From contig OZ237771.1 of the NCBI GenBank assembly GCA_965178125.1, positions 1 to 64,000 on the forward strand: 64,000 nt of DNA, written 5' to 3'. Position numbers and translations under genes: made by a program. Shown here piece after piece: positions 1-60,300 of this stretch. Source of the stretch: Bilabrum cf. latius (lineage: Eukaryota). The notes beneath the pieces are model-generated. The model was given only the letters and a program-made list of their open reading frames with translations, did not search any database and was not told the origin of the DNA. How positions within the stretch are numbered: the stretch's first letter is position 1; each line of letters opens with the position of its first letter.

Positions 1-1037
1 CCCTAACCCTAACCCTAACCCTAACCCTAACCCTAACCCTAACCCTAACCCTAACCCTAACCCTAACCCTAACCCTAACCCTAACCCTAACCCTAACCCT
101 AACCCTAACCCTAACCCTAACCCTAACCCTAACCCTAACCCTAACCCTAACCCTAACCCTAACCCTAACCCTAACCCTAACCCTAACCCTAACCCTAACC
201 CTAACCCTAACCCTAACCCTAACCCTAACCCTAACCCTAACCCTAACCCTAACCCTAACCCTAACCCTAACCCTAACCCTAACCCTAACCCTAACCCTAA
301 CCCTAACCCTAACCCTAACCCTAACCCTAACCCTAACCCTAACCCTAACCCTAACCCTAACCCTAACCCTAACCCTAACCCTAACCCTAACCCTAACCCT
401 AACCCTAACCCTAACCCTAACCCTAACCCTAACCCTAACCCTAACCCTAACCCTAACCCTAACCCTAACCCTAACCCTAACCCTAACCCTAACCCTAACC
501 CTAACCCTAACCCTAACCCTAACCCTAACCCTAACCCTAACCCTAACCCTAACCCTAACCCTAACCCTAACCCTAACCCTAACCCTAACCCTAACCCTAA
601 CCCTAACCCTAACCCTAACCCTAACCCTAACCCTAACCCTAACCCTAACCCTAACCCTAACCCTAACCCTAACCCTAACCCTAACCCTAACCCTAACCCT
701 AACCCTAACCCTAACCCTAACCCTAACCCTAACCCTAACCCTAACCCTAACCCTAACCCTAACCCTAACCCTAACCCTAACCCTAACCCTAACCCTAACC
801 CTAACCCTAACCCTAACCCTAACCCTAACCCTAACCCTAACCCTAACCCTAACCCTAACCCTAACCCTAACCCTAACCCTAACCCTAACCCTAACCCTAA
901 CCCTAACCCTAACCCTAACCCTAACCCTAACCCTAACCCTAACCCTAACCCTAACCCTAACCCTAACCCTAACCCTAACCCTAACCCTAACCCTAACCCT
1001 AACCCTAACCCTAACCCTAACCCTAACCCCTAACCCC
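1..1037. repeat. Telomeric repeat array (CCCTAA)n, chromosome left end
   Basis: Perfect CCCTAA tandem array from base 1, with CCCCTAA-type variation at the proximal junction. Confidence 0.99.
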
Positions 1038-2043: not shown

Positions 2044-2847
2044 CATGGTGCCGTGGTAGTAACGTTAGGTTGGAGGTTGCTTTGGTTCTGTGAAGGTCCT
2101 GCCTCATTAAGGTGTACGATCGCGTTTGTGTACAGTGCTTGCCCGAGTAAAACAATGGTCAGGTATTTTAATACTATTGTAACCATTCACCGTTACCCTA
2201 ACCCCTAAACCTAGACCTCACCCTCCCGGAAATCTGAGCCAGACCTCTCCAATGGCCAGGACAAGCAAAAGTAGCGCAGCTGCTTAGCACGTTCCAAGAA
2301 AAATTCCTGCCCTTGATCCCGCGTACTCACTGGGCTTCACCCCGAACAACTGGTTCTTCACCGGCCCACCTGAATCCGGTATGCCTCTGACATTACGAAT
2401 GTACACGCCTGTTTCCCAATACACGCGACTGGCCTCGTCACTACATGGCTTCATATTCCTGATCCCCACCCTAGGGACCGTGTGCTTTGCTCTCTGCATC
2501 GCCACCTTGGCCCTATCCTTCCAGCTTCCACGCGCCGGTCCTGGCCGACCTGCCGTGCGCCCCATCTATCCACCCGGCTATTGGCCCTCTGCGCGCTGCT
2601 GGCCATGCATCCCGCTGCCACTCGCGTCTCCCTCGTGCCTTGCACCTGGAGTCCCCTCCCTCCCGTTGTGTTCTCCCTGTTGACACCGCACTATCGTCGC
2701 CTGTGCCGGTGTGTCCCTGTTGTCCCTCTCCACCTCCTGTACTCCTGCGCCCACCTCGTCTTCCGGCTCACCTCTGCTCCCCGTCGCTTCAATCCTGATA
2801 TCCGAGTACTTATAACACGATCAGCTAAGCATGCTCACTTAAGGCAC

Positions 2848-5634: not shown

Positions 5635-5888
5635 ATTGATAAGCTGCCGCTCGGTGTCTCGATCTGCAGCAGATATGCAAACGAAGATTCTTTATTATGA
5701 AGGATTCCACCCACTGGCACTCCGAGGGAGTCGCGCCGCGGCCGCCGGCGCTGCCACATCACTGTGGCACTTATGCTGGCAGCGTGGGGGTATCCACTTA
5801 CCCCGCGAAAAATCTTCTAACCAACTAGTCTAAGGCGTAGTGCACGCAACTGGAGTAGGTTAGGCTGAAATCGAAATCTCCACGAGCT

Positions 5889-10106: not shown

Positions 10107-10427
10107 AACTGGCGAACGCTGCCCCTCAGCGCCCGAATAGCACGCGGCTTGATTGCCGCTCGAGTCTAATTGTGACCTCTCAACTTCCACATCCGCATGT
10201 GGTCGGTGATCCGATCCCCCTGATCCGAGACACTCGTCACACATGCCCAACCCACACCTGCCCGGCCTGTGCCTCCCCCTTCCTATCCGCCTCATCAACC
10301 CAATGACCCCACCGATCATCTTTTCCTCCACCATATCCTCCCCCGTTCCGGTGAACCGTCGTCCCCCCCTCCCTTTGCTCTACCCTCCCCCCCCTAGCTG
10401 CCCTCTCTCTCTCTCTCTCTCTCGCAC
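10107..10427 (+). repeat. Left part of a conserved non-coding repeat (element 'AB'), split by the RT retrotransposon; continues at 13836-13945
   Basis: 10107-10395 and 13848-13945 are colinear with the uninterrupted inverted copy at 25337-25795. Confidence 0.8.
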
Positions 10428-13400
10428 AGAAATCGGGCGGTCGACATTCTTGGGATGTCGAGAGAAGTCGCAGACAAGTTCACCAGGGGACAGGCGGACC
10501 TCGTCATGCAACTGTACACCGCAATCGGGTCAGGCTGGGTCCCACCACTTGCACGAATGCTCCTGACTTTAGGACGGGGCATCGGGATTGAGAAGCCGGG
10601 GAAGCCGGAACCCAGGCCACTCGGTATGGGCTCCAACCTCCTGCTTCCACTCCTTAAACATCTTGGCGACGGGCTCAAACCGTTGGTGGTGAAGAGGTGC
10701 AAGCCAGAGCAGTTCGGAGGTGGTCTTCCCTGTGGGGCAGATGCCATCTCATTCTTGGTTCGTGTGTATCTATCCACGTTCCCTGATCGTGTGGCAGCCC
10801 ACGTGGACATGAAGAATGCCTACGGCACGGTGGAGAGGGAGTCTATCATGAAGGTGTTGAGGGAGGAGAAATCCGAGGCCCTCCCCTTTGTGGCAGCACA
10901 GTTTAGATCGCCAGGGTACTCGGCGATCGTAGGATCGGATGGTGAGGTTGACATCCTGAAGAACCGGCAAGGGGTGGTCCAAGGATCACCCATGAGCCCG
11001 CCGTTGTTCTGCCTTGGTTTTGACAGGGCCCTGAAGGCAACACGAGCAGCACATCCCGACGTACTAATCCTTGCGATTGCGGATGATGCATTCCTGCTTG
11101 GAACGCGGGAGAAAGTAGCTCTTTGCATGGCTACCTTGAGAGCGGAGGTGGAGAAGGACAACCTCACGCTGCAGCCCACCAAGACGGAGTTTCACTCCCC
11201 GTCGGAGTCCACGCGGGTCGCGATCCGCGAGGATATTGATGCAGGGAGACTCCAGGGCACGCTGAACGCAGCGGGGATCGTCGTGGCTGGCATCCCGGTG
11301 TCACGTACCAGGGAGTTTGTGGAGAAGCACCTGGGAGAGCGGCTGGTGGATGTTGCAAATGGGGTCGTTCTATGCGGCCTTCTGAAGCCATCACTAGCGG
11401 TGTACGTGTTCAGGACGTGCATCCAACCCAAGTGGCAGCACTTCTGCAGGAGCGGTATTCTCATTGGCCTGGAGAAAGGGGGGACGCTGCAGAGAGTTGA
11501 ACGCCTCGAGGAGGCGTTCACGGACCTGATAGCCAGTTTCGACACAGGCCTCTATAGGGCGAACGACCAGCTCCTACGAGCTGAGTGCGTCCGCCACCAG
11601 AGGAAAGCTCCTCTAGCTCAGGGAGGAGTCGGGCTTGCACTGATCCCAGAACGTCTTGCCCTGGTAGCACGGTTCGCAGGCATGGTCCTCGATGTGGTAC
11701 CAGGACTAACTGGCCTGGCGATGAAGTACAACCTGGATTTCATGAGCGGGCTTAGCCAGCTCGAGGAGGCAACCGCAGGCCCAGTCAACAACCAACACGA
11801 CACGTACGGACTTCACAGTGCGCCTGTGCTCTAGGTGGCAGACTGGGCTGTGCGCTGGGTACTGTACAAGATGAAGGGACTGGTCCGATCGGCCAAAGAG
11901 GACCCCAACCAACGCCTCAAGTACCAGCTGTGGCACCAACCGGTGCCCCACGAGGACATGCCAGGATGTCTCAAGTCGGTGTGGGACCCGACGAGACTCG
12001 AAGAGATGCTGAGCGACCCAGAGACGAAGGCAGCACTCGAGAAGTAGGTGAAGTGTGCGGAGCACAATCTCATCACACCGGACCCGATTGAGAAGGTCAA
12101 GGTGGAAATTGCCAAGAAAGTGTTCATCGAGGTGGACCCGATGGACAACGTGTCAAGGGCGAAGCGGACCGCCGCGAACCCGGAGAGGTTCATGTTGGAG
12201 GCAAAAGGGTTGAAGAGTCACCTGAGGCATATGCAACGGCTCGCTGGGGACGATCCGATGAAGTTTGGTGGCCACCACGAAAGTTTGATGAAGAAGGCTG
12301 CAGATCGTGCCTGCACGGAGATGTTTCTGGTGAAGCCCTTCCAGAACATCCCAGGGTTCCAACAACGCCTCCTAGGAGAAGACCAACAGTGGGCAGACAG
12401 GGCCCGAGTGGAGATGCAGAGAGCAAGGGCGCTGATCAGGAGCTGCAGGTCAGCCGACGCAGGGGCGTTGCTACGCGCCTGCTACGTGAAGGAGCAGTTT
12501 GGTTATGGCGTGACCATTCCTGCCAACAAGGGGTACCAAGAGGAATTTTGCAGGCGTCTGATGGGACCGTCACCATCGGCAAGGCAGGCGCAGGAGGTGC
12601 TCAAGCGGATGCGGCACCAAGACGGGACACACGACCTGGAAGCTGAGATGAACCTGGTATGCCCGGACCCCGAGTGCCGATGCGGCACCGGGTACATACA
12701 CCAGGTAAGACACATGAGCTGCTGTGGGAACAGGCTGAAGCGAGCCACCGACAAGGGGCGGCTCACGGGCATCCACGAGACTGTGAAGAGGGAGTTGTGC
12801 AGGATCGGCCAGCACGCGACAGGATATAAAGCGTCATCCGAAGACACGGGACAGTACTTGGAGGGAAAGGATTACAGGATGGATTTGGTGATCCACAGAG
12901 GACCAGGGGAGAAGGAGATCCTAGTCGATGTGACTTGCGTGGACCCGCTTGCCCAAGCCGCACTCGCACCGATCAACTAGAGGTTCAAGAAGGGAGCACG
13001 CGAGGGGGAACGCACCGGACCTGCGAAACCCGTGGGCTCGGACTACCAGGATGAGACTGCCTGGGTCAGGGGAGCATTCAGGAAGCACAGGGAGGTTCAT
13101 TTGGAGGTGCCTCCGCACCGGAGGATGGCTGGTCGTATCCCCACGGGGGCGACGGGGAACCCAGTGAAGACGCTGAAAAATCCCAAAACGGTGATCTTTC
13201 GGGATTTTGTGATCCAGCCTTCAGGCAGGATCGGAGATGGAGCCAGAGGGGTCCTCAAGCTGCTAGCACGCATCAGGCGTAAGCGGCTCGGGAAGAATGG
13301 GAGCAAGTCAGTGGATGCCCAGGTCAGGTTCTGGGCTCGGGATATCGCCAGGTTGGTCGCCATGCGGAACGCAGCTTTCACGAGCAAATTTAACCTTAAC

Positions 13401-13835
13401 GCTTGTGAGCTGCTGAAGCAGAGGGAGGCAACCGGCGCACAGGGAGCGGCCGCAGCAGGAGCTGGTGGTTAGGTGGGAGAGCTGGCAGCGGGAGTTGCGC
13501 AGCTAGGAGTGGCACTACAGCAGGCTGGTGGAGCTGGTGGTGCGTAGGGTTTGGATGCAGCTGGAGCGCCAGCTGTGCCCGCAGTACCTGCTGCAGCTGC
13601 AGTAGGAGCTGAGGGTGCAGCACCGGACGAGGCGGCTGATCCGAACGCAATCGAACACGAAGGCATCGCGAACGCAGATGGACCGCAAGCAGCGCAACTC
13701 CCCCACGGAGGAGCGGCCCAGCTTGCGGAGCCCATGGCGTGAGCTTGCTGATCCGTTCGACCTGCCCAGTGCGATTGCCTCTTGGGGTGGTCGTTGTAGT
13801 TGGGTAGTGTGTGCTTTGACTCAGACATATTATAT
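10428..13835 (+). mobile_element. 5'-truncated non-LTR retrotransposon (CRE-like RT + Zn knuckle + RLE; family A) with 12-bp TSD
   Basis: TSD tctctctcgcac at 10416-10427 and 13836-13847. The ORF begins within the RT at the left junction. A short 3' UTR ends in catattatat. Confidence 0.9.
10455..13742 (+). CDS. Reverse transcriptase-endonuclease ORF (~1,095 aa, N-terminally truncated), continuous with TAG=Gln
   Basis: RT motifs PRPLGMG, VDMKNAYGTVER, GVVQGSPMSPPLF and IADD. CRCG..H..C knuckle. RLE H..VKREL..RMDLVI..ILVDVTCVDP..FRDFVIQPSGRIG. TAGs at 11832, 12045, 12978, 13470 and 13545; ends in TGA. Confidence 0.9.
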
Positions 13836-13945
13836 TCTCTCTCGCACTCCTCCGCATCGCTCCGTCGCATCTGAGCCTGCTCCTCGAGCGGGTCCTGCGC
13901 CCACCGAGTGACCTCAATCTCAGAGACCTTGCTGGCCTCACCAAC

Positions 13946-14520
13946 AAGCGAGGCTCAGACAGAAGTGACGAAAGCGCAGAGAAAAACGGAGTGCAGGACA
14001 AGCTGAGGACGTAGAGCAGGAAAGCAGACAGGCGATACATGGATGGAACGTACAAACCGAAAGGATGTACGGGGCCAAAAAAGTGTACGGTAAGTGATCC
14101 AGAGAAATACGATTTTCAACCTTTCGTGTTCCTCCACACTGGACGTGTAGCAAAGCAGAGCAGAGGAGTGCTGAAGCGACTAGCCGAGATACGCAAGGCA
14201 AGAGGCAAGCAGGGAGGAGTGGTAGCAACTGTGCGGAAATGGGAGCGCTAGATTGCGAAAGCAGCGACGCATTATCGGGAGTCCAGGCTGGACATCTTTT
14301 ATACCAGCCTGTGCGATCGGATGTGGCAAAAGCTCTCGCAAGCTCGTGCTGCTGAGTTTGCGGGTGGTGCCACGGAGGAGCAGGTAGCCGATATCGGAGC
14401 TAATGGACTTCAGCTGGGACAGGATGCTAACGATGCACCCAGAAATATAGACAATGCGGCGGATCCGGGAGTAGCGCAAGGGCAACTCGCTCAAGCCGAC
14501 CCGGGTGCCGCACCGTGCCG
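13946..14520 (+). mobile_element. RLE C-terminal fragment of a family-A-related retrotransposon
   Basis: YDFQPFVFLHTGRVAKQSRGVLKRLAEIRKAR..VRKWER[TAG]IAKAA, followed by an Ala/Gln/Asp-rich tail. Homologous to 13190-13400. Confidence 0.75.
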
Positions 14521-14542
14521 GTGCCGAAAGTTGAAGAACTTT

Positions 14543-16364
14543 GGGGGGGATCTGATATTTTTTGGACTCAACTCAAAAGCGCACGCTATCACGAAGAAAC
14601 ATCTGGAACGAGGGCCCGGGACCTACCAGACTTCACGCTTCAGCTGCAATGGCCTAAACCACCTAAGCTCCACCCTGGGGACCCATTTCCCCCTGGGGAG
14701 CGTCAGCGTTCACGTTCCCTCCGGCGCCCGCTGCCGGCACCCCGTCCTGCTGCCCGTTCTGAGCCAACCCTGCCTTGGCGTTGGCGATCGCCACGGCGAG
14801 GTTGTTGTTTTCGGCTGCCCCTACAGCCAGGCTGGCAAAGTCCTCCCGGACCGCCCTTGCGAGCGCCCGTTTGGCCTTCGCTGCAGCCCTCCTCGATCCC
14901 TTCGAGACAAAATCGAGGATCCTTGAGTGGTCCTGCATGACCCGTGAGTACATAGTGTGGTACACACGCTGATCCCCGCGCACGTGCTGGTGCTAGGCGG
15001 CAACGGAGAGGCGAGCCTTTGCCACAGAAGACCACGAGAGGCGTGCGTTGGCCGGACGAGTCGAAACCCGCCGCCCTTTGTCCTCCTACCTCTTCTTCGA
15101 GCACCTACAGGAACTCGACCGACTTCTGCCCGATCCCCCCCAACACGTCCACCACAAAGGGTACGACCCGCACGCCACTGCGTACCGCCCCTTTCTGCGT
15201 CCTCACGGTCCCAGGACACCACTTGTCTTCTCCTCCGATCCGGACGCCGAGCGCTCCGAGGTCGACGGGCCTGCCGTAGCTGGCCAGCTTCGTGGCATGC
15301 GCGGCCCGCAGAGCAGACCCCTCTTGCCAGTCGCTGCCAATCCTCCACGACGAGCGGTCCCACCGGTAAGTTGCCGCAGTGGAATCAACCACCGTGACAT
15401 CGATGAGATAAGCCGTCCCCTCGTGCTCAAAGAATAGGTCGCCTCGTGGCACGAGCGGACCGCGCCGACCCGGCAGCCGGGCCACTTGGCCCTCTGGCTC
15501 CCGGATAGGGCGTCTGCCCGTGGCCTCGCGGACCACCTGCTCGAGCACGTTGAGCACCCGGAAGTGCCTGCGGCCTGGAAGGCCTCCGCAGACACGCTTG
15601 TCCTTGCACGTGGCACCGTGGCGAACTGACTAGATCAGTTCGACTACCTTGCCCTGCTTCCGGCACCCCGGGCAGATCTGCGTGACGCGCCACGCCTCCC
15701 CACATGCACCGTGCGTTGCCCCAAGAGGTTGTGGGGGACAGCTGCACGGCTATGGGATGGCGAGACGCTGGCAGAACATGCCCCGGGCATCTTCAGGCTG
15801 GACTCGGCTCAGGACAGAGAGCGGCGCATGCAGCCAAGACCCGGCTCCTTGGGACCTGGCGGCGCGGATTGTGGCTCGCGCCACTCCTGCGTACTCTCTG
15901 GTGACTGCATCGACTGGAGCGAGTCTGTCGTGCGCAAGCGGAGATGAGGCATCCCAGAGGAGCCTCTCCACCTGCACTCGCTCAGCCAGTGCCGTCACAT
16001 GGCTCTGGTTGTGCCCTCCTGCGGCACCTTCGAGAAAACGAATAACCGCCTGCGATGCGGTGGGTGCCGGCTGCTCCCCAGCCAGCTGCCTCGTCACCCA
16101 TGCCCGAAGGTCCTTCACCTCCAGGCGCCAGGGTTCAGTGGCCCCACCGCACAGCTCCATACGGGCTGCCTTCTCGGCTGGGCTGCCCAGGAGTTCCGAA
16201 GTGCGGGCTGTGTCCCACACCATACCATAGCGTGGGGGGACGTCAGCCTCCGGAACAAGTGGAAGCAACGGACTCGGGAAACCAGCCATCCCGAAATTGT
16301 CTTGCTTCCCCTCTTGTACGAGTCTCCCGTACTTCGAGATTGCGGTCATCACAGTGTCCACAAG
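14543..16364 (-). mobile_element. 5'-truncated non-LTR RLE retrotransposon (family B, copy 2)
   Basis: VWDTARTSELLGSP..RATIRAARSQGAGSWLHA..CPGC..H..C..RRHFRVLNVL..PRGDLFF..YLIDVTVVD..VVPFVVDVLGGIG. One frameshift near 15095. Flanked by gaagaacttt at 14533 and 17897 (hAT-1 lies between). Confidence 0.88.
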
Positions 16365-17888: not shown

Positions 17889-17906
17889 TCCACAAGGAAG
17901 AACTTT

Positions 17907-19457
17907 GGGGGGGATCTGATATTTCGTGAACTCAACTCAAAAGCGCACGCTATCACGAAGAAACATCTGGAACGAGGGCCCGGGACCTACCAGACTTCAC
18001 GCTTCAGCTGCAATGGCCTAAACCACCTAAGCTCCACCCTGGGGACCCATTTCCCCCTGGGGAGCGTCAGCGTTCACGTTCCCTCCGGCGCCCGCTGCCG
18101 GCACCCCGCCCTGCTGCCCGTTCTGAGCCAACCCTGCCTTGACGTTGGCGATCGCCACGGCGAGGTTGTTGTTTTCGGCTGCCCCTACAGCCAGGCTGGC
18201 AAAGTCCTCCCGGACCGCCCTTGCGAGCGCCCGTTTGGCCTTCGCTGCAGCCCTCCCAGGCCTGAGCAGGGGGGGTACGAGGCCCTCGTACCCCCCACTC
18301 GTCACACTTAGGGGTACGAAATTTGGCGGATCTCAGGGCAGACCGCCTCGTACCCCCCCACGGTGTCGATGGATGCAGTTGACATGGGTTCTACCCGAAA
18401 AAAGACATAGACGAAGAAGTCATTGTGCGAGAAGGTGAAGGACAGGGAAAAGCTAGCCTGGGAAACCGCTGAGAGCACAGGCTGCGCTCACGGACGCTGG
18501 CCCGGGGCTCCAGAATTCGGGCACTGCACCCTCAGGCTGGCGGTGCGCACCCCAAGCGGAGTGACCACCCCGAGGTCGAGGCTGGAGGGCGTGCAGCTAG
18601 ACGACGGGAAACACCCGCTGCAGCTCGTGGCAGACGTTGAGGTATTCTTCAAGAGCTACCGATCCTAGTACGCCGTGTGCATGCCAAAGCTCAAGCCGAG
18701 GAGCTCGAACTGGAACGGGTGCCGGTTGCCTATGGTGATGGAATGGGTCACAGAGGTAAAGAGCTCCAGGTCTAGGTGCGGCCGCAGGAAGAATTACCCA
18801 CGATACAAGACATAATCAAATGTGAGGTACATCGGTTCCATCCATCCTTCCTCAGCGGGTGAACGAGTCTTATCGGTGTGGAATGTAGTTGCCGACCAGC
18901 AACGGGTCAACCTTTTCATTCGCTAGCGGAAATTCGAGATGAGATACAGAGTAGATATATCTACTATGATGCGAGTGCTGTAGCTCCAGTTGGAGGCAGA
19001 AGGTGTCACACCGGCGGGAGAGGTCTGCGAGGAGGTCTGGGAAATCGCTTCCGAGCACCTTGCGGCATCACTCATGCCAGTTGCAGCAGACTAAGCTGAT
19101 AGAGAACTTAATTACAACTGGATTGAAGAAGATGAAGGATAATTGGTTCCCTGTATCTCGCTTGAAGATGGTCCATGATTTTTTGAGAATATATCAGAAT
19201 CCGGGGTTGCGTGACATTTTTTCGATGTCGAATTTTGCGACCGAGTTGTGTCCCATCCAACTCAGCTCGCTCTGGGGAGTCCAAAAATGCCTTCAGATCC
19301 TGTATAGCACTATAGGAAGTTGGTTTTTAGGGGGGGTACGAGATTTGGCGTTTTTTGGAGCCTCGTACCCCTCCTCGTACCCCTCCTCGTACCCCTCCTC
19401 GTACCCCTACCGTGCACAGGCCTGAGCCCTCCTCGATCCCTTCGAGACAAAATCGAG
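17907..19457 (-). mobile_element. Short 3' copy of family B retrotransposon (copy 3), interrupted by hAT-2
   Basis: 17907-18256 plus 19433-19457 are near-identical to 14543-14918. Flanked by gaagaacttt at 17897-17906 and 19458-19467. Confidence 0.9.
18257..19424. mobile_element. Non-autonomous hAT-like DNA transposon (hAT-2)
   Basis: TIRs caggcctgagca / tgcacaggcctg (1 mismatch). 8-bp TSD agccctcc at 18249-18256 and 19425-19432. Subterminal ctcgtacccc repeats at both ends. The empty site is visible in copy 2 at ~14885. Confidence 0.92.
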
Positions 19458-19979: not shown

Positions 19980-22900
19980 ATGCGGGCAGTTCGACGCTTG
20001 CAAGGAGCTTCAAGGCCGGGAGCGCGGATGGTCCATGATTTTCGTTGCTCCCTTCGTATGCAGTATGCCCTGTCATGGGGCACGTTGTCGCACCGAAGCT
20101 GGGTTCGCCCTTTAGCGGGCGCTCGCTTTCTGGCAGGCGACCGCGCACTGCACTCATGCCTAATTGCAAGGGGAGAAGGGCTCGCTGGCGATCAGCAGGT
20201 CATGTAGAGTGAGCAGGCAGTTTTGAAGAGGGAAGATACCCTTGATAAGGCCAGCAGTGCCCTGAATGATGCAAGGATTTCTGTGAAAGAGGCCAGGAGT
20301 GCTGTGGATAGAGCCGACGACGCTGTGTATGCTGCTGCCGAGGACATTCGCAACGCCAAGACGGACGAAGAGCGCGCCGAGGCCAGACAACGCGAGCTCA
20401 ACGCCATGCAGTAGCAAGACAAGGCCAATCAGAGGTATGAAGAGGCCAAGCTAGAGTATGAGCAGGCCAAGCTGTAGTATGAGCAGGCCAAGCTGTAGTA
20501 TGAAAAGGCTGAGCAGCGGTATGAGCAGGCCAAGCTGTAGTATGAAGAGGCCAAGAAGGACGCCCAAAACCTGTTCGCCGAGCAGCGAGAGCAAGCCATC
20601 GCGTTTCGCGACTGCATCCCGTCCGAGCGAACATCGCAGCACGCCCGAGCACTGGCCTCCATGATCAAGAAGGGCGAGGACGACTTCCAGAGCCTCGAGT
20701 ACCAGCGAAAGGCCCTCAAGCTGCCAGAACTTGCGAAACCACTGCCTTACCGCTGTCTCGATGATATGAAGATGCACACAGCCTTATGGTTTGTACAGCG
20801 AGTCGGATCTGGTCTCGACAAGTTCTCGCGAGTTGTTAGGGGTCTCGCGGAGCCGTCTAATACTTAGGATCGCAAAGTGCTGGTCGTCGCGCAGTCCTCG
20901 GGCTCTGGCAAAACCAAGCTCGCCCACGACGTTGCGCTTGAGAAGGGGGTCGCATCTGTCATTGCCACCGTAATTGATACCAATAATGATGGGCTAACAA
21001 TGCCTTTCGTGGACCTAGCAAAGAAATGGCCTGCGCTTTTCGACGCCGAGTACCCACACGGTGTCGAAAGCGAGACTGAGCGCATTGGTGACTTCAACGG
21101 CGACCTTTTTGTTGTCGTGCTCGCCGCCCACGTGGAGTGGGCTGCCCACGTTGCAGAGGAGCTGCACAAGCTCGGGCCAAGGCAGCGCAGTGAGAGTGAT
21201 GCCAACCGAGCCATAGTGATGTCGACATCAAATGGGGCCGGCCAGTTCGGCATCTCATCCTTGGTTCAAAACCGTCTTGACGGCATCCCACACATCCGCA
21301 AGGTCGATTCCTCGGCGCAGCTTGCAAACTGGGCGAAGGAGTACGTGCTTTCTGCAGCATCTAAACTGCAGGACGCCCAAGTGGCTCTGCGTGGGGAGCC
21401 AGCTGGAACACCTGTTCCTCAAGTACTGGTAACGATCGATGAGGCCCCGAGGCTTATAGTGCAGCGCTTTGGCACGAAAAATGACCACAGTAGCAGCTGG
21501 CTGCGAGCTGCAGCCCATGCACTGGCTGTCATGACGAACATGGGTGTCGCTAGTTGCATGACGGGCACCTTCTTCGACGTGGCAAAGCTGTTGGACGACA
21601 CGTATTCGCCCTTGCGGGGACGTACTTGTGGCTTTTATCACGCGGAGAACATCACATCGGCTCTCTTGTGGCACGACCTGCTGCGCCGCCACGTTCCGAC
21701 TCTGCCAGAGGTCATCCCGCCAAGCATCTAGGCAGACCTGGAGCGCTTGGAAGGGCGGCCGATTTTCCTGTTTGACATCCTTTTAACGGAGGTTTTCGCC
21801 GAGCTGGCCTACGAAACGTTTAGTTGGGATGAGTCTGGATGGCCGGAGGACATTCGAGCTATTGTGGACCCCTCCGCGCGCCGATTTGCAGGGTTCCTAT
21901 ACTTGTGCCTACGCGGCGCATGGCATAGTTCGGTGAATACCATGGTAGAGAGGATAGAAAAATTTACCATGCGTAGATGGAAGAAGGGCAAGCCACCGGT
22001 CATGTCGGAGAGTGACGGCAGCCAGCTGCTGCTTCAGATGCTAGACAGCGTTTTCCTGGAGGGTGGCCAACTGCCCTTGCTGAAGGCTGACTACGGCACC
22101 CGCAGCAAAAACAAAGACAAAAACGAAGAGATTATGAAGGATGCCGTGAGGCAGGGCGTGCTCGTCTACGACCCGACTGAAAAAGGGAGTGTGCTGCAGG
22201 AGCACGTGACAGTGGAAGCTGTGCGCAAGGTAGGGCGCAATATCGCGCTATCGCGGGAACCGATGGAGGACGAGTGGCTGCGTGACACAAGCCGCATGCT
22301 GAGAATGCGAAAATGGAGAGATTCCAAGGGGTTGCAGCTCGAATCTGCCTTCGCGTGGATGTTGATCCGTGCTTGCGACGACAAGGATGACGGCGTTAAG
22401 CTCCAGGATGCTCTGGCTGGGGTGGTCCCTGACGGATTCGTTTTTCCGAAAAGTGTGAGGGACAAGATCGTGAAGATCACGGGAGCTAGCCATGTCCCGG
22501 TGGTCGGCGATGGCAAGATGGACGACTGGCGTGCAATGTCCGGCACGAGCACAATCTGGTACGACTTCCACCAAAACGCTGGAATGGACCTCATGATGCG
22601 CACAACAGACGGCACGGTTATCGGCGTGCAGGCCAAGTCGGGCAAAGTTGACCTGGCGGACGCGGTGGCCAGCTGCAGCCTTGGTTGGCAGTACTTCTCG
22701 AGGAAGCCAATCGCGAGCAAATCGAACACGTTTTTACGGAAGCCTGGTAACTTGCGGCGATGGTTTCTTGATCATGCTCCTTTTGCGGCAGGCGAGGAGC
22801 ATCCGCGGCTAGTGTTCTCCGTGAAGGACTTCAGCCCAAGAGCCGTGGGTGCCGTGAATGCCTACAATGAGTTGCGCCCGCAGTCTGCCATCCTGCTGTG

Positions 22901-24089: not shown

Positions 24090-25053
24090 GCAGTGGGGAA
24101 ATCGAAGGGATCCTCGGCAACATCATCAACACCGCCGTAGGATTTCGTAGAACGATGAAACCACGTGGGCTGTTCAAGGAGAGAGGTAGGTACGCGGACG
24201 CGATCTACACAAGGAAGGATGGCATCAACGTAGTCGTCGACGTGCTTGTGGCACAAGTGCACACACGGGTAAGTATGCACGCCGCATTCTCGACGAAACG
24301 AAGGGACCAGGCAAGCGGTCGGGGGCAGACTGGCAGAACGAGAGCGCACTATACGCAGGGGCGTAGGTGAAGCTGCAGATGTACTACCAACCCAAGGACC
24401 AGACGAGGCTGATCGCAGGACAGGTGCCGCCAGGAGGCAACGCACCAGGCCAACAGTATCGCAAACACATGAAATAAACGGGGAGGTACATTTTCCGAGA
24501 CTTCGTCGTTCTACACACCGGGAAACTTGGTACCGGCGCATGGAAGGTCTTAGAGGAACTGGCGAGGATCAGGCGAGAGCGAGTTGGGCCAGAGCAGAGC
24601 AAGAGCGTGGACGCACAGGTCAGGACGTGGGCCAGGCGCTTCACGATGAGTTTGGCAACGACACGGGCGAAGTACATGAACGACTATTACAAACATGTTC
24701 AGCTGGTTACTACACGCCGTGCCATTGCCGAGGAGGAGAAGAGGAGGGAGGACGCAGAGAGAGCGGAACAGCAACAGGAAGCAGCAGCAGTGGCAGCGGC
24801 AGCGGCAGGTGAGGCGGCAGAGGCCGCAGCACTCGCAGCAGTCGTTGAGCAGACCGAAGCTGAAGCCGACCAGCAGCGGGGAGCATTGCCGGTCGCACTC
24901 AACCTGCAGGGCGGAGCCCGGGGAGGAGCAGTCGCAGCTGCTGACCCTGGCGAAGCACCTCCTCAAGAGATCGAGCCCGAGGATCCAGGAGCTCCAGCTG
25001 CAGCACAACCCCACCACGGCGGGGTATAGGTGCTTCTGGATCATCCTGAGTGA
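24090..25053 (+). mobile_element. Degraded 3' portion (RLE + low-complexity tail) of a family-A-related retrotransposon
   Basis: RYADAIY..VVVDVLV and YIFRDFVVLHTGKLGTGAWKVLEELARIRRERVG..SKSVDAQVRTWAR are homologous to 13190-13340. Contains a frameshift and a TAA at 24475. Confidence 0.8.
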
Positions 25054-25336: not shown

Positions 25337-25795
25337 GTTGGTGAGGCCAGCAAGGTCTCTGAGATTGAGGTCGCGCGGTGGGTACAGGACCCGCTCGAGG
25401 TGCAGGCTCAGATGCGAGGTAGCGACGCAGATGAGAGTGAGAGTGCGGTAAATGAGGCCAGGTTAGTGATAATGGGCAGGAGCGGGGGCGGCGAGGGGTG
25501 GGCGAAGGAGGGGGGTGAGGGCGGAGTAGAGAGGGGTGACGCTTCACCAAGCGGGTGAGGGAGTAGTGGAGGAGAAGATGATTGATGGGGTTATCGGGTT
25601 GATACGGCGGATTGGTAGGGGGCTGAGGGGGGGGGGGGTACAGGCCGGACAGGTGGAGGTACGGGCGTGTTCAGGGGGATCGGATCGCCCGACCACATGC
25701 GGATGAGGGAGTTGGGAGGTCACAATTAGACTTAGGTGGCAATCAAGCCGCGTACTATTCGAGCGCTGCCCCTAGGTGCAGCGCTCGCCACTTTT
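25337..25795 (-). repeat. Uninterrupted copy of conserved non-coding element 'AB'
   Basis: The reverse complement matches 10107-10395 joined to 13848-13945. Confidence 0.85.
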
Positions 25796-26101
25796 TTCAA
25801 AAACGTGGGATCTCAACATGCGTTCATCATCATCACCTCTATTGCACTTATCGAGGCTCACTCAGGATGATCCAGCAGCACCTGTACCCCGCCGTGATGG
25901 GGTTGTGGTACAGCTAGAGCTCCTGCATCCTCGGGCTCGATCTCTTGAAGAGGTGCTTTACCAGGGTCAGCAGCTGCGGCTGCTCCTCCCGGGACTCCAC
26001 TCCAGCCTGCCTGCCAGCAGTGCGGGTAATTAAGGGCTCCGAGCTAAGCATCGTAGACTAGCGCCTACCGCATGCACGTGTACACAACTAGATAAGTAGC
26101 C

Positions 26102-27735
26102 ATGAGAGCCCGCAATCTAATTCCTGTACGAATGATCTTCTATATAGTAGTGCTGGGTATTTGTGCTTTATCCGCGGTGGTGTCTGGGAAGAGCACAGCG
26201 AAGCAGTTACGATAGGAGGGCGACAGGCATTTTCGATAGAAAGCGTACGACCGGGCCATTGAATCGTACGGAAAAGCTTTGCATGCTGAGCCATCTCCAC
26301 GACTCTACTACTAGGTGAGCTAATCGGCGGGCGCTCGATAGTTCTGGAATGCCACTGCCAGCTGGCGCCGCGAAATCATACTGTTTCTATGCTCTAGCTA
26401 CGAGTCAGCCCTGGCTACGTTCATGAGTCTAACTAGATCTTTATTTCGTTCTCGCAGAGATTTAAGGCATTCATCAAGAAGGGATAGCTCAGCAAAGCGA
26501 GGAAGGACCTGGATCGAGCGCTTGACTTGGACAGCACTTTCACGCTGGCAAGACTGCAACGGGCCAATCTGCGTTTGCAGGCGGGTGATTGCAGTGGTGC
26601 TACGCAAGACTATGAGGGGGTGCTGCGAGCAGATCCGACGAAACAGGACGCACAGCGTCGTGTCCCGGAGGCGCGCAGATGCGCGGCGCACGTCTCGCAG
26701 GCTCACCGGGAGGTCCAGCTGGGGCGATGGGGAGAGGTCACCCGCAACCTAGACGAGGCCATGGCCCCGGGGCGCGCCACTAGCAGCGTGGATCTGCTCG
26801 TGCTCGCAGCCCGCGCTAAGTTGGAGCAGCAGCAGGAGGATGACGCCGTCATGCTGGCGGGGAGGGCGCTCAAGATCGACCACAGGAGCATTGACGCGCT
26901 GGCCATGCGGGCCAGGGCGCTCTACCACAGGGGGGATGCAGAGCAGGCGCTCACTCACACGCAGCAGGCCCTCCGTCTAGACCCCGAGCACACGGAGGCC
27001 ATGAAGCTGCATCGGCGCATGCGGCAGGTGAGTCGGCTGGCAGCGCAGGCCAAGGAGGCGGCCGGGGCTGGAGACCACACGGGGGCGGCGGACGTGCTAG
27101 CAAAGCTTATTGCGGTGGACCCGGGAAACACGGCGGTGATGAATCCTCACCGGAGGGAGCTCTCAGGCGAGCTAAGGCGGGCCGGCCGGGCGTAGGAGGC
27201 GCTGCAGGTGGCTCAAGAGGCGGTGCGGGCGCACAGGGGGGATCTGAAGAACTGGCTGGAGCAGGCAGAGGCCGAGGCAGCGCTGGAGGATTTCGATGCC
27301 GCGCTGCGGTCCACTCAAGAGGCCACCCGGCTGGGAGGGGGCAATCGGGCGGAGAAGTGGCTGCGGGAGAAGTTGCGAGCTGCCCAGGTGGCACTGAAGA
27401 GGAGCAAGGAGTCGAATCATTACAAGGTGCTCGGAGTGGGGAAGAGCGCCACAAGTAGGCAGATCAAGAAGGCGTACAGGAAGCGGTCGCTGGAGACACA
27501 CCCCGACAAGGCGCCCAGCCAGGACGAGAGGGAGGCTTACGAGGCGGAGTTCCAGAAGGTGGCGCGGGCCTATGAGGTGCTGAGTGACGATGATAAGAGG
27601 AGGAGATACGACGCGGGGGAGGAGGACGTGGACTAGCCGCAGCAGCAGCAGAGGGGAGGAGGTGGGTTTCCACCCTTCTTCCGCCGAGGCCCTGGCGGGG
27701 GCGGGGGGCAGCGGTTCACCTTCCGCTTCGGCTAA
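26102..27735 (+). CDS. DNAJC3: DnaJ homolog subfamily C member 3 (P58IPK-like: signal peptide, TPR repeats, J domain); 1 intron, 6 in-frame TAG, TAA stop
   Basis: Exon 1 26102-26314, GT-AG intron 26315-26457, exon 2 26458-27735. Hydrophobic signal, TPRs, J domain [19 protein letters not shown], and C-terminal [10 protein letters not shown] followed by TAA. Confidence 0.9.
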
Positions 27736-28036
27736 CTTCACAACAATGAGCCAGTCATACATGGTTATTGGTCTATTTTATTACGTTTCTTTCAGGATGG
27801 TGTGCTGAGGCGTGGAATCTTTCGCAACAGAAATCCGAGTTTTGCATTTTGTAGCGTTTGAATTCACTGAACGGATCTGCGACAAGTTTGTGTGCAGCCG
27901 AGTGAGTCACGGATACTTGCAGTTCACGAGGCACAGCAAGCCAAGAGACCCTGAATAAGGATCCCTTTGTTTTATATTGCAGGCAATCCTCTGCCTGCTT
28001 GTCAGATACGGTTTCGAGCGCGCTATCTGAGTAATC

Positions 28037-30028
28037 ATGGCTGGAGTTGCTAGGTCGGGAGCTGCAGAGGCGCCACAGGCCGCCGTGCGTACACTAACTT
28101 AGGATCAGATCATGGATATCTTTGAGTATTATTGTAACTTCGGAAGATCCGCCGTGCAGAGCGTGCAGGACTCGATGGATTCGTTCATGTTCATGAAGTT
28201 CGCGCGCGAGTGCCCGCACCTGCTTGAGGGGGGGCTGTCTCGCACAGAGATCGACCTGATCTTCACCAAGGCGAAACCAAAATATGAACGTAGATTAGAC
28301 TTCGAGCACTTCCTGGACGCGCTCTCAGCCATCGCCGAGAAGAAGTACGAGGAGCACGACAGCCGTACGGCGCATCGGCTGCTGCTGCATCACCATCTCG
28401 TGCCACACTTCGATTTCGTGCAAGCCCAGCTCAGCAAGACTGGCGATAGCGAGATCCCATTGAAAGGGGTATTCAAGAAACTGTACGATCCTTCCAACTA
28501 CACGGGGGTGTATGCCGAGAGGTTCCGCTCGGGCGACGGGCGGATCAACGGGGAGGCGGACAACCGACCTGGTCGGTCGTTCCGCGGCAACACGAACACG
28601 GGCACAAATGAGGTGATCCACGACATCTCAACCTTGATGCGGCCGAACCTCCACGGCAAGGGGACATCGCTCGCAGAAGCGAACCGCTCGGGCAGCGGCT
28701 TGGGCGCGTCGGGCGGACTGAGTCGTTCTGGCAGCCGGCGCGCGATGGGGAGCAGCAGTCGGTCGTTCAGGAGCCCTTCGCGCCCGGGCTCCTCCAGGGA
28801 CCTACGGAGGGGGGCCAGCGGAGCCGCGGCGGGCGGGGCTGGCGGCGGCATGTTCTCGCCCATGGGACGACCCAGGGAGGAGGGCTCCGGTCCCCGTGCC
28901 GCCCCCCGTGCAGCTGCGCCCCCGATCGATCCTAAGGCTGAGAGCGCTGCTCTGCTGGTGGCGCTGGAGAAGGCAAAGGCGGGCGATCCCACTGAGCTGC
29001 TGGCGCTCACGAAGCAGCTGCAGCAGCAGGCTGCGGCGGTGTCTGGTGGCGGCGAGAGCAAGGGGCCAGAGGGGGATGCGGTGGAGGGAGAGGGAGAGGG
29101 AGAGGGAGAGGCGGGGTTTGGTGGTATGGCAGATGGCGAGGAAGCAGAGGCGGAGGCTCTGGAGGAAGAAATCCGGAGGAGGCACGCGGGGCACCGGGAG
29201 GCTGTCCGCGGGGCCGTCATGTCCCCCGACGACGACACCACCATCCTGTCGAGGCCCCCGCCACTGACGCAGACGGACATCATGGAGGTGTTCGAGTACT
29301 ACTGCAACTTCGGGAGATCCGCCGTGCAGAGCGTGCAGGACTCGATGGACTCGTTCATGTTCATGAAATTCGCGAAGGAGTGCCCGGGCCTGCTGGAGGA
29401 CGGGGTCAGCCGCACCGACGTCGACCTGATCTTCACCAAGGCGAAGCCCAAGGGGGAGCGGAGGCTCACCTTCACGCACTTCCTGGATGCGCTCTCAGCC
29501 ATCGCCGAGAAGAAGTACAGCACGTACGAGCCTGCAGATGGGCTGCGGCTGCTCATCGGACGGCACCTCGCCCCCCACCACGAGTGGGTTTTGGACGAGA
29601 TGGACAAGACTGGCGAGAGCGAGATCCCGCTCAAGGGGATCTTTAAGAAGCTGTACGATCCTTCCAACTACACGGGGGTGTATGCCGAGAGGTTCCGCTC
29701 GGGCGACGGGCGGATCAACGGGGAGGCGGACAACCGGCCTGGTCGGTCGTTCCGCGGCAACACGAACACGGGCACAGATGAGGTGATCCACGACATTTCG
29801 TCTCTGATGCGACCACATTTGCGTGGCGGAACCATGATGAAGTCCCGGCAGCAGCTGCTGGGTGGATCGCCGCGGAAAGCAGGGTCTTCCCGGGCACTTT
29901 CATCCCCTCGAGGTGGAAGGGGGAAGCCAATGCCGCACTACATGGCAGCCACAAAAGGATCCAGAGCCAAGGAGGCAGTTATGGGCATGGCAGGAGATGA
30001 GACGGAAGGACGCGGGCCTTGGTCTTGA
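28037..30028 (+). CDS. Tandem p25alpha/TPPP-like microtubule-associated protein (two p25alpha domains)
   Basis: Two near-identical domains (FEYYCNFG..FMKFA+ECP..DLIFTKAKPK..FLDALSAIAEKKY..KLYDPSNYTGVYAERF..GDG). ATG 28037, one TAG at 28100, TGA stop. Confidence 0.85.
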
Positions 30029-30985
30029 GATAAGTAGAACTGAGTCTCTCATGTTGCACGATCACTTATTTTATTCTTAACTGTTTCATGGGTGAACATA
30101 CACAACACGTCAAAGGAAGGTGGAGTCAACAAAGGTGGTTTCCATTGCATTCAATTAATCTATAGATGAACTTATTGCTAGACGAAAGTCTGTTTTGAAA
30201 AAACGCGAAAAAGTGATAACAAAAGTGCGAAATCAATGAATGTGCAGCATAGAAGTATGCTTATTCATGCACCATACCTACCAAATAGTCTCGAATTTGT
30301 GGATATCATGATGTTTTCTCAGATACATCCAGAGCTACATAATACTTTGAGACGATATGGTATGCTTGGAAAAAATGGTATTTCTGCGTCCTTATTGGTC
30401 GTCTTGATCGCTTGGATCCTCAATATTATTATGAAGTGCTTGTGCATAGCTCAACGGATTAGTAGACAACCTCATCCTTAGTCATACTGTGTCCGATTCT
30501 TAAATTCCAAGTTGTACTTGCCATCCTAGTTCACACGCTGGCTGCACAATCGAGTCTAAGAGCGACTTGGCTATCTTTTCTTGCACTCTTGATGGCTTCC
30601 ATAATCGAAAAGCAGCATTCCACTGCGGTTTGAAGGGGCCATCATCCCTGAAATTCGCAGGGTTGTTCCCATTCTTCGACTTCTTCACAACCAAATTAAG
30701 CTTGTGAAATGATCCCATCTTATTTCCAAATCAACACACGGATCAAATTGAATTAAGTTTTGCGAGTGACATCAAAAATGATGATCTGAAGTATTAAAAT
30801 GATGAAAGGGTAATTTAACTGCCCAAGCAAAATGAACTATGTCAGTACTGCGTGTAAGCGTCGTTTTCAGACCGCTACCATTGCAAGCTTATATTTTCAT
30901 AAGGGTCCAACAATACCACCTGAGACACCTGGAGGGCACCAGGTGACTCAATGAGGTCCAGCTGTGGAGTACCAGCCGATTGACG

Positions 30986-31050
30986 GGGAGGGAATGTGAA
31001 CGCCGACGCCCACCAGGTGGACAATCGGTTCCCAGGGTGGAGCTCAAGTA
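30986..31050 (+). mobile_element. Old, diverged remnant of the family B retrotransposon 3' end
   Basis: The reverse complement (gagctccaccctgggaaccgattgtccacctggtgggcgtcggcgttcacattccctcc) aligns with 14665-14723. Confidence 0.65.
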
Positions 31051-31857
31051 CTGATCATTAGACAGCAGTAGGTCGGCTTTCCGTTGTAGACGGGCGTTCT
31101 GAGGAGTTCTCATCCGAACTGCTTGCATCTTGCACCTCTTATTGAACAATAATATTGTGTTATTGCTTTTTTCTGAGACAGCCAATCATGCCATATAAAC
31201 TCAGCACCATCAGTTTGCTGGGTCACATGGAAGATTCTTGTCTGTCTATGCAAGTCAATGATCAGTACACTAGCAGCTGTGTCCGAATTCTGAGATGATC
31301 GTAAAATGCATCCTTCACAGAATATGAAAAAGCAATCAGGGTTAACTCGATGCCTGGCTGTAATCAATAAATTTTGAATATAAATATGAATTGTTTTTAT
31401 ACGACTATGCTACGATTTTCGTGGAGAGTCCTTGCCTCTTATTTACGTTGTGGCTTTGACTTTGTAAAATGTGATTCGACAAAGGATCTAATGCAACCCA
31501 GACGCCAGTCAAGTCATAGCAAAAACCAATAACGCATGCGTCGTGTCCGCACAAATCCTTGAATCCATAACGATATGATGAGAGCCACCAAATATGCGAA
31601 ATGAAAGTATACAAGACCCATGTCTCTACAGCATATTCAATTACATTGGAGTATCTTCAAGATGATTATGAATATAGCTGGTGAGTTCTGAGTAGAATTT
31701 TCTCTTGGCTTTTCTATTTAGAACTCCGAAATCACAACAGTGGCTTCAATTTCAGAAGATAATATTTTTTTGTTGGATTTAGCTTTGGTTTTATGTGGAA
31801 TAATCATACTACATGTCAGATAAATAATAATGCAATAGCAATGACTGCACGAGCCAG

Positions 31858-57300: not shown

Positions 57301-60300
57301 CCAAGGCACCAGGAGGTTTCTGGGCGCTTTGTTCGGCGGCATCCTCCCCAGCTGGCTCGCTCGATCCCGTGTCTTGGATATCCAGCCCGTCTCGTTCATA
57401 TAGCCCGCTGCCCCCTGCCGCCACCCAGGCCTCGTGCACCAGCCCCGCAAACCTCGAGGTGCTGCCATCCATCTCAATGGGCGCGGTGTGCTGTGGTAGC
57501 ACCACCCGTCTGCACGAGGGACACGCGCTCCTGCCCCTGTGCTTGAGAGCGTGCAGCAAGCAGGCCTGGCAAAACACGTGGGCGCAGGGCGTGATCACCG
57601 GCATGTCGGGGGGCTCCATGCAGATGGGGCACTCGATCGCGTCCAGGCCCTGCTGCTCCAGTGTGACGAGTGAGTCCCACGCGTACGAGGGCAGCTCTGC
57701 CTGCGCCAGGGATCGTAAAGAGGCGCGTGACTCGTCCCGGCTGGCGGCCGCTCCACCAGCGTCACTCGATGATTTGGCAGAGTCCGCTGCAGGGCGCGGA
57801 GGTGAAACGACACCCGCTTCGCCTTTCTTTTGTGCCCGCTGGACCATGATTCGGAGGGCGGCTTGCTGCGCGCTCTCTGATGAATGCATGATGCCGTTGG
57901 CCACAAGGACCCGTTTGAGCAGCTGCTGCATCTGAGCGGGGGGGATCTTCCTCTTGGCGTCTTTCGGAGACTTTCCACCAGCTGCCTGTGTGAGTGCAAG
58001 TGCACCTGCGGATGACGACGACGATGACGGTGCTGCCTCACTGCTATCACCGCCACTTGCATCGGCACCATTGCTTGCAGCGCCAGTCCTGCTGCTGCCC
58101 GCTACCTGTTTCCCCCCAGGGGCCCTCTGCTCCTGCAAAGCGAGGAAAGGATGGTCGCACGCCTGTCGCATCCTAAGCAGTAAGATCAAAATCTCCAAGT
58201 ATCTTTTGTTGAGCGCACCCCCCGCCACGATTCCTTCGAACGTCTGCACTGACCTGCTCTTCAGTTGCTGGTAGAACCTCTGCTCCACCCCGCTCATGCG
58301 GCAGACCGTGGTGATGTTGCGCCTGGGCTGCATGGCCACGATCGGCCTCCCGTCCACGTCCCTCATATCCTTGGTACGCCGCAGCAGGATGGGCCCCAGC
58401 ACCCTCCGGACCGTCGCAATGGACCCGGGGTCCCCCCTTGCGAATGGCTCCGAGACCACGGCCTTCCACCACGACGCGTCGCTCCAGGGCTCGTGGCACA
58501 GGTACTGCAGCAGCGCGTGCACGTCGTCCAGCGTGTTCTAGATCGGAGTTCCCGTGAGGCACCAGCGAAACACGGACCGCACGGCCATGCACGCCTTTGC
58601 ACTGAGTGTTAATCGATTCCGGATGACGTGACCCTCGTCCAGCACCACCCGCCGCCAGCGAACGCCCAGCAGCGCAGCCCCACTCGGGCAGTCGAGGTCT
58701 ACTCCACATGAGTCAGAGCCGGGCCACCGAACGTTCTTCAGCTCTTCCTCCTCCATGCCAGCGCCTGCACCCGAGCTAGAGACACCCGCCCCACCAGACC
58801 CCTTGCCACCATCCTGCAGCCGACCCTCGAGCCAGTCCAGCTGTCGGAGGAACCGTTCCTGATCCGCCTCCCATCGGCTGAACGTACCAGCCCCACCTTT
58901 GGCCACCTTGTTACCACCTTTGGCTCGCCCCCTCCTGACGCTCCTTGAAACAGCGCTGACCTCCGCTCTCTAGGCCACCAGGAACTCTGACACGAGGGTG
59001 CCGTAGGTGGTCACCACCACGTCCACCTGCGGAAGAGTACCTTGAGAGCTTGACTCGCCACCAGCATGACCCGCGGCACTTTGAGCACCTGTCTTCCTTG
59101 ACATGCTGCCTCCCAACACGGCCCCGCCCTCTCGCAGCACGAGTGCCTGCGGCGTGGAGGCCCGCTTGGTGCCGTAGTGCAGCTTCACTCGGAGGAAGCC
59201 CGGGCTGCTGAATCGCTCCATCTCGTCCTTCCACTGCTGCAGCAGAGAGAGGGGAACCACCACGAGAGTGGCGGTCGATGCGTGAAGCGGACTGACCGTG
59301 GGTGTAAATTCACCGGTGGACTTGACGGGCATCGGCGCGTGGATCCGTTCGCCCTGCTGGGCCCGCCTCTCCTTGTCTGCAACTACCAGGCTCAGGATCT
59401 GGATCGTCTTGCCTAGCCCCATCGCATCGCACAGCAGTCCACCCCTGCACTCTCTCGCTCTGTCTGGAGGGTACCGACTCACCCGACGGAGATAAGGGGA
59501 CACGTACAGTGGCTGCGGCTTGAGGGACAGACCGGTGCAGCTGGTGCTGGTACTACTGGAGCTGCTGGTGCTGCTGGTACTGCTCGTCTTCTCCCCTGCG
59601 CCCACTGCGGCTGCCTCTAGTAGCACACATCTTGGCCCAGTCTCGGCACCTGCACCTGCACCATGCCCATGTATCTCCCACAGCTGGTTGTAGCCGCACT
59701 GTGTGGCACCGGGCGGCAGCACCAGCCCCGTGGAGTCCCCGCTATCGTTCTCCATGCCAGATCCTGATGCACCAGACTGCTTCATACCACCTCTGGCGTC
59801 GTCATCTTCCTCCTATTCATCATCATCCTACATAGCAGCCGCACCGGACCCACCGGTGTATCGGTCGCTCACTCCCTTCGTACGCCTCAAGTGACCCCCA
59901 CTTCCGCTCCCCCCTTCTTCCTCCCCAACTGACACAGCCTCTCTTCTCAGCATCCACCCGAGGCCTTGCGCCTGGTATGGCCTAAGTGAAAGGCCTTGCA
60001 CGTGCCTGGGCTGGGGCTCCTGCGGCAGGGCATTCTGCGCCAGCTGCAGGTCGTCCAGCCCCTTGACCTGCTCCTTGCTCTTGCTTGACACCCCGGTTGC
60101 GATGCTGAACTCGGACCCGGCACCGCCCTGGCTTGCCTGCGCTTTGTCTGCACCCATACCATCCATGCCATCCTATTCCTATTCCTCGTTTTGTGCCCGT
60201 TGGGCCTCCGCATCCGCCGCAGCTTCCGCATCCATGGCTTTGGCCTTGAGTTCAGCATCACCTGCTGCATCCCCACTGCTGTCATCGCCACCCTTCTTCT

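Follow-up and report, generated by a model that had tools for sequence, protein, structure and literature searches.

As far as is known, UAA and UAG are nearly always reassigned as a pair, and the nuclear lineages that depart from this rule are few. One of them is Iotanema spirale (Fornicata), whose nuclear code, reported by Panek et al. in 2017, reads UAG as glutamine while UAA and UGA serve as stops, and whose eRF1 carries a T32G change in the GTS motif (PMC5304391). The phyllopharyngean ciliates Hartmannula sinica and Trochilia petrani, as well as Protocruzia tuzeti, are likewise reported to have reassigned UAG only, to glutamine, and a tRNA with a CUA anticodon unable to read UAA has been proposed in the same source (PMC11687900). 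For these UAG-only lineages, the proposed machinery associates such a tRNA-Gln with an eRF1 weakened at a third-position G (PMC11687900, PMC5304391). Further codes reported to reassign UAG alone give it another amino acid, namely leucine in the rhizarian exLh and in phyllopharyngean TARA MAGs, and serine in Scotinosphaera (PMC11687900). The code in which both UAR codons mean glutamine (table 6) is described from many ciliates, Hexamita, Streblomastix, some Ulvophyceae and Amoeboaphelidium (PMC11687900, PMC5304391).

The window studied here, that is the whole stretch of 64,000 nucleotides that was analysed, begins with a telomere.

1..1036, forward strand: telomere repeat (CCCTAA)n, 172.5 copies by repeat count

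This array, together with spliceosomal introns and typical eukaryotic genes, identifies the window as a nuclear chromosome end. Its G+C content is about 0.6 and its genes include DNAJC3, a duplicated p25-alpha/TPPP gene, an ArfGAP, an ankyrin-WW protein, a kinase, a 2,867-residue thrombospondin-repeat protein, a 2,718-residue SNF2-RING (Rad5/HLTF-like) helicase, a reverse-transcriptase element and a protein with a phage-tail-collar domain. Past the telomere, two 98%-identical direct repeats of 243 nt (1036-1278 and 1367-1609) and a 54-nt tandem array (1784-2048) look like a subtelomeric repeat structure. The collar-domain protein is encoded by a subtelomeric ORF of 947 codons (2848-5691, reverse strand) with four in-frame TAG; the domain itself, at the C-terminus (PF07484, E=7e-12), is unusual for a protist gene, and one scan of the protein against viral contigs found no close relative. 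The p25-alpha/TPPP gene (28031-30028, forward strand) contains an internal tandem duplication, with copies of about 540 nt that are 81-84% identical, are spaced 1,170 nt apart and have a low-complexity linker between them. Between its 3′ end and the convergent 3′ end of the ArfGAP gene extends an AT-rich stretch of 1.8 kb (30050-31850; G+C 0.41 vs about 0.6 elsewhere), in which no ORF, tRNA or Rfam match was found.

Twelve ORFs, all of them long or supported by Pfam, were curated and counted from their first ATG. Their 13,660 codons include 85 in-frame TAG, 0 TAA and 0 TGA, the zero for TAA being partly built in since these ORFs are delimited by TAA and TGA. When the same ORFs are counted from stop to stop, they hold 87 TAG in frame; the two remaining frames hold 95 and 96, with 32 and 47 TAA and 251 and 318 TGA, and neither of the latter two codons occurs in frame. 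TAG is therefore about equally frequent in and out of frame and is not excluded from the reading frames, unlike TAA and TGA. If TAG is taken as a stop, the longest ORFs reach a few hundred codons; taken as sense, it opens frames of 2,867 and 2,718 codons which match Pfam domain architectures end to end. UAG is translated: it stands in frame in every long gene of the window.

The sequence-only reading had drawn attention to one gene, in which a TAG at 27634 would be read through into a Gly/Phe-rich tail closed by a TAA at 27733. The model of this gene is given below.

26102-26314 and 26458-27735, forward strand: the two exons of the DNAJC3 (p58IPK-type) gene, with the ATG at 26102
26102..26314, forward strand: exon 1, 71 codons, with a signal-peptide-like N-terminus and the first TPR; in-frame TAG at 26213, 26237 and 26312
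26315..26457, forward strand: spliceosomal intron, GT..AG, 143 nt, established from spliced contigs
26458..27735, forward strand: exon 2, 425 codons and the TAA, with TPR repeats, J domain and Gly/Phe-rich tail; in-frame TAG at 26485, 27193 and 27634
27634..27636, forward strand: in-frame TAG, codon 464, Q in the closest homologue P0002
27733..27735, forward strand: terminal TAA, codon 497, directly after ..FTFRFG, the end point of 7 of 14 homologues
27736..27814, forward strand: 3′ untranslated stretch, its limit being the reach of a spliced transcript-like contig
27859..27861, forward strand: next in-frame TGA, 41 codons past the TAA and the end point if the TAA were read through

Once spliced, the gene comprises 496 sense codons; TAG stands at codons 38, 46, 71, 81, 317 and 464, and TGA is absent in frame. 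Were the intron retained, its third codon would be an in-frame TAA. As had been claimed, the TAG at 27634, the Gly/Phe-rich tail and the TAA at 27733 lie in one frame, with the translation quoted earlier. Pfam recognizes DnaJ (E=1.5e-22) as well as TPR families, and the protein aligns over its full length with 14 homologues at 28-40% identity, some of them named DnaJ subfamily C member 3 at their source. By its TPR repeats, its C-terminal J domain and its Gly/Phe-rich tail ending in F-x-F-x-F-G, the predicted product is a DNAJC3/p58IPK co-chaperone; its N-terminus is hydrophobic, and the signal peptide, judged from sequence alone, is putative.

The exon joint (26312/26314 to 26456/26458) was found in contigs of runs X1, X2 and X3, which belong to two studies, and contigs of the DNA-like run X6 are unspliced and read through the intron. 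Since the DNAJC3 intron is spliced out of them, the contigs of X1-X3 are transcript-derived; the RNA label of these three runs is a guess, and it is the intron-less joint that demonstrates their RNA origin. Spliced contigs of X1, X2 and X3 cover all six TAGs of DNAJC3 and its TAA with 0 differing letters, and contigs of four runs agree on the TAA. This rules out, for these codons, RNA editing, removal by splicing and errors of assembly. The general proposition that in-frame TAGs are artefacts of RNA editing, splicing, pseudogenes or sequencing errors has nothing to recommend it beyond being conceivable; it is refuted for DNAJC3 by these contigs and, as the 85 TAGs are spread over 12 genes with intact Pfam domains, its probability is next to nil.

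Transcript-like contigs start at 26089-26101, 1-13 nt before the DNAJC3 ATG, and end 2-79 nt past its TAA; at the p25-alpha gene they end 16-52 nt past the TGA (30029-30080). This hints at very short untranslated regions in both genes, contig ends being unreliable. The 3′ ends of the DNAJC3 transcript contigs differ, record 8 of X2 reaching 27814, record 1 of X1 reaching 27737 and another one 27658. The interval 27838-28004 is covered by no X1-X3 contig, and the DNA run X6 continues there. Because the X1-X3 contigs stop at different places, their ends were not taken to show that the transcript finishes short of the TGA at 27859.

The amino acid inserted at UAG was approached by comparison at the following sites, in addition to the TAG at 27634 described above.

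58538..58540, reverse strand: in-frame TAG of the Rad5/HLTF-like gene, within SNF2 motif III (LTGTPI-TAG-N), Q in most homologues
28100..28102, forward strand: in-frame TAG in the first repeat of p25-alpha (TPPP), matched by CAG at the paralogous codon of repeat 2 (29270-29272)
27193..27195, forward strand: in-frame TAG, DNAJC3 codon 317, Q in the 98%-identical P0001

At the SNF2 motif III position, 116 of 120 homologues have Q, the others being V (2), H (1) and L (1). P0001 is a 299-residue protein, a 98% identical DNAJC3 from another data set, which has Q where the window has the TAG at 27193. Judging from the protein alone, a CAR/TAG difference between strains is implied. P0001 starts at an internal alternative start of DNAJC3 and ends exactly at the TAG at 27634, which indicates that its gene caller treated TAG as a stop. 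At the column of the TAG at 27634, Q stands in P0002 (DVDQPQQQQ), which is the closest homologue, and in 2 others of the 14; the TAG at 26312 is also Q in P0002. Two of the six DNAJC3 TAG sites are thus Q in P0002, the remaining four falling in variable columns; in the variable tail of the ArfGAP, Q is found at 0 of 3 TAG sites in P0274. Many TAG columns without Q are to be expected, because TAG makes up 12.8% of the Gln codons (with 157 CAA and 422 CAG in the 13,660 codons) and is found chiefly where conservation is poor. In two genes, coiled-coil-like tandem repeats built of 21/42-nt units (20403-20555 and 41473-41632) also include a TAG in each unit type (AKLQYEQ and KLRQREAQLQAFDR), but their variant units give E or R and were not taken as decisive for the amino acid. 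Taken together, the assignment of UAG to glutamine is supported by four independent comparisons and rests on few conserved sites.

What UAA means is best seen at the end of DNAJC3. The sequence-only reading had placed the TAA at 27733 where proteins of this family normally end, and the alignment bears this out: 7 of the 14 homologues end in the same column and 4 one residue later. The other 3 extend 12-21 residues further with a Gly/Phe-rich sequence, so that the family end is not absolutely fixed. Homologues running past FRFG are the case that would speak against termination here; in the window, though, the 41 codons that follow the TAA (LHNNEPVIHGYW..) contain nothing Gly/Phe-rich. Across the TAA, G+C goes down from 0.67 to 0.41, and the coding score per codon from +0.21 to -0.07, a drop of the same kind as that at the TGA ends of other genes. 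For one of these, the SNF2 gene, homology reaches to 4 residues before the TGA. The decoupling of UAA from UAG within one gene, which had been the central claim, is thereby upheld: DNAJC3 holds six in-frame TAG and ends at a TAA at the family C-terminus. These comparisons support the view that UAA behaves as a stop, with DNAJC3 as the one gene whose UAA end is backed by homology.

The terminal codons of the 12 curated ORFs are 11 TGA and 1 TAA, so that the statement that all other complete ORFs end in TGA holds for the 11 others. That TAA closes just one ORF of 12 could be taken to mean that UAA is unassigned or avoided, with UGA as the sole true stop and the DNAJC3 TAA as a recent mutation or a poorly terminating site. 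Yet this TAA stands exactly at the conserved end of the family, neither short of it nor beyond, and is the same in contigs of all four runs, and a strong excess of TGA over TAA would be expected anyway in a GC-rich genome devoid of TAG stops. We give this proposal almost no weight. The genome is GC-rich (about 0.6), with UGA as its usual stop (11/12 ORFs) and UAA as its rare one.

The terminal codons and the last TAGs of genes also bear on a context-dependent code, with UAG as sense within genes and as stop near mRNA ends. Codes of this type, in which a codon is both stop and sense, are reported to exist (10.1101/2022.04.12.488043, PMC12152300), the examples being Condylostoma and karyorelicts and, for UAA, Blastocrithidia; moreover, the ORFs being delimited by TAA and TGA, the window taken by itself cannot show that genes never end in TAG. 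However, the last TAG of DNAJC3 lies 33 codons from the end; in the SNF2 gene the distance is 32 residues, and the TAG falls within the conserved helicase C domain. In both genes homologous sequence follows. In addition, 12 of the 12 curated ORFs reach TGA or TAA, and a TAG end is needed by no gene in the window (n=12). On this small set of genes we regard an ambiguous UAG as unlikely, and an ordinary sense codon as the more probable reading.

A more familiar alternative would be that both UAA and UAG encode glutamine (table 6), UAA being merely rare in a GC-rich genome and DNAJC3 running on to the TGA at 27859. Such codes are described as far commoner among eukaryotes than UAG-only ones (PMC5304391, PMC11687900), and the GC3 of the window genes, 0.53-0.80, goes in the same direction. 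But CAA is not rare (157 vs 422 CAG), and if TAA:TAG followed CAA:CAG, 31.6 in-frame TAA would be expected; 0 were observed (Poisson P about 2e-14). The part of this zero that comes from the delimitation of ORFs is avoided by looking at long frames whose domains are recognisable: those of 2,867 and 2,718 codons hold, counted from stop to stop, 17 and 18 TAG and no TAA. The coincidence of the DNAJC3 TAA with the family C-terminus, and the AT-rich, non-coding character of the 41 codons that follow it, are equally against glutamine at UAA.

There is one TAA in the window for which reading as sense has to be considered.

24475..24477, forward strand: TAA with coding-like flanks, in a 5′-truncated retroelement ORF copy; stands opposite N when aligned to the intact one at 10224-13742

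It emerged from a scan of the 483 TAA triplets of both strands as the only one with 60 open coding-like codons on either side, and homology does extend to both sides of it, as a glutamine UAA would allow. The fragment matches residues 929-1056 of the 1,172-residue retroelement ORF at 42% identity, and the TAA aligns with N, not Q, which is why we read it as a probable mutation in a dead, 5′-truncated copy. With this exception, the absence of in-frame TAA alongside common CAA, noted from the sequence at the outset, stands (0 TAA vs 157 CAA in 13,660 codons), and glutamine at both codons appears to us highly improbable. Other candidates were set aside. The TAA at 23530, 34908 and 34601 have coding-like sequence upstream only and lie in ORFs that lack support, and the ORF at 2284-2820 (reverse strand), a possible second TAA-ended gene with a coding-like score, was not counted for want of a supporting family or homology.

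The retroelement itself (10224-13742, forward strand) has six in-frame TAG in its 1,172-codon ORF, which implies an element adapted to the code of its host. Several partial copies, truncated or inverted, are scattered over 16 kb, at 13820-14926, 17897-18196, 24178-25053 and 25337-25768, and the only in-frame TAA of the window, at 24475, is carried by one of them.

Within the window, then, UAG is sense and read as glutamine, UAA and UGA are kept out of the reading frames, and one gene is closed by UAA. The nuclear code is very probably one in which UAG means glutamine and UAA and UGA are the sole stops, the pattern of NCBI table 15 ('Iotanema-type'). According to established knowledge of decoding, such a code would be served by a tRNA-Gln with the anticodon CUA, whose C34 pairs with G and not with A and would leave UAA unread; a UUA anticodon, by contrast, would read both UAA and UAG. 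On the side of termination, the N-terminal domain of eRF1 would have lost efficient recognition of UAG and kept that of UAA and UGA. The 64-kb window contains no tRNA gene (ARAGORN), no Rfam match and no eRF1 gene.

As regards the lineage, the closest DNAJC3 cluster (P0002, 40% identity) holds proteins of Cafeteria roenbergensis, the next named cluster being Pelagomonas, and the best named matches of the Rad5-like helicase core are also from Cafeteria, at 50% identity. A search with the ArfGAP gave 40 matches, all on the conserved domain and 0 from Cafeteria, and is uninformative on lineage. An affinity with green algae, suggested by the first named DNAJC3 matches, was dropped, the closest cluster holding Cafeteria proteins. 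With two of the three genes pointing the same way, a stramenopile related to, but distant from, bicosoecids may be proposed, as a lead and not as a phylogeny. Cafeteria is known as a giant-virus host (10.1101/751586).

A full-text literature search, with most subscription journals outside its coverage, found no report of nuclear UAG reassignment in stramenopiles. We consider it a real, if somewhat less than even, possibility that the window comes from a relative of the bicosoecid Cafeteria which would be the first stramenopile with a changed nuclear code, and that this is an independent origin of the UAG-only glutamine code in a GC-rich genome with UGA as main stop. A further unrelated lineage, available as a chromosome-scale assembly, would be a tractable case for the separation of UAA from UAG by eRF1 and a CUA tRNA. 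Being dominated by UGA, it would also put to the test the proposal that UAA is protected by being the fixed, preferred stop. For annotation the consequence is practical: gene callers using the standard code cut such genes at every TAG, and the 299-residue P0001 is an example.

How does this locus compare with the described systems? The decoupling of UAA and UAG is not new in principle, having been described for Iotanema spirale in 2017 (PMC5304391). The window resembles Iotanema in that UAG is sense and means glutamine and in-frame UAA and UGA are lacking, both being kept as stops. It differs in stop usage, UAA being reported as the predominant stop of Iotanema (PMC5304391) whereas TGA ends 11 of 12 ORFs in this GC-rich window, and in lineage, Iotanema being a metamonad and the present organism an apparent stramenopile. 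With Hartmannula, Trochilia and Protocruzia it shares the change of UAG alone to glutamine and the retention of UAA as stop; what sets it apart from the phyllopharyngean and Protocruzia cases is the preference for UGA, a (TTAGGG)n telomere, long, intron-poor and GC-rich genes, and best named homologues in Cafeteria. More generally, UAA is reported as the predominant or preferred stop in the described UAG-only glutamine cases, whereas UGA dominates here, which fits the G+C content. The codes in which UAG means leucine or serine likewise detach UAG from UAA, with a different amino acid; glutamine is favoured over these two in the window by the Q of 116 among 120 homologues in motif III of SNF2 and by the paralogous TAG/CAG pair. 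Finally, in UAR glutamine codes UAA is sense as well, whereas here it occurs in frame in 0 of 13,660 codons and ends a gene. The code is of a known kind; the lineage carrying it is most likely one from which it has yet to be described.
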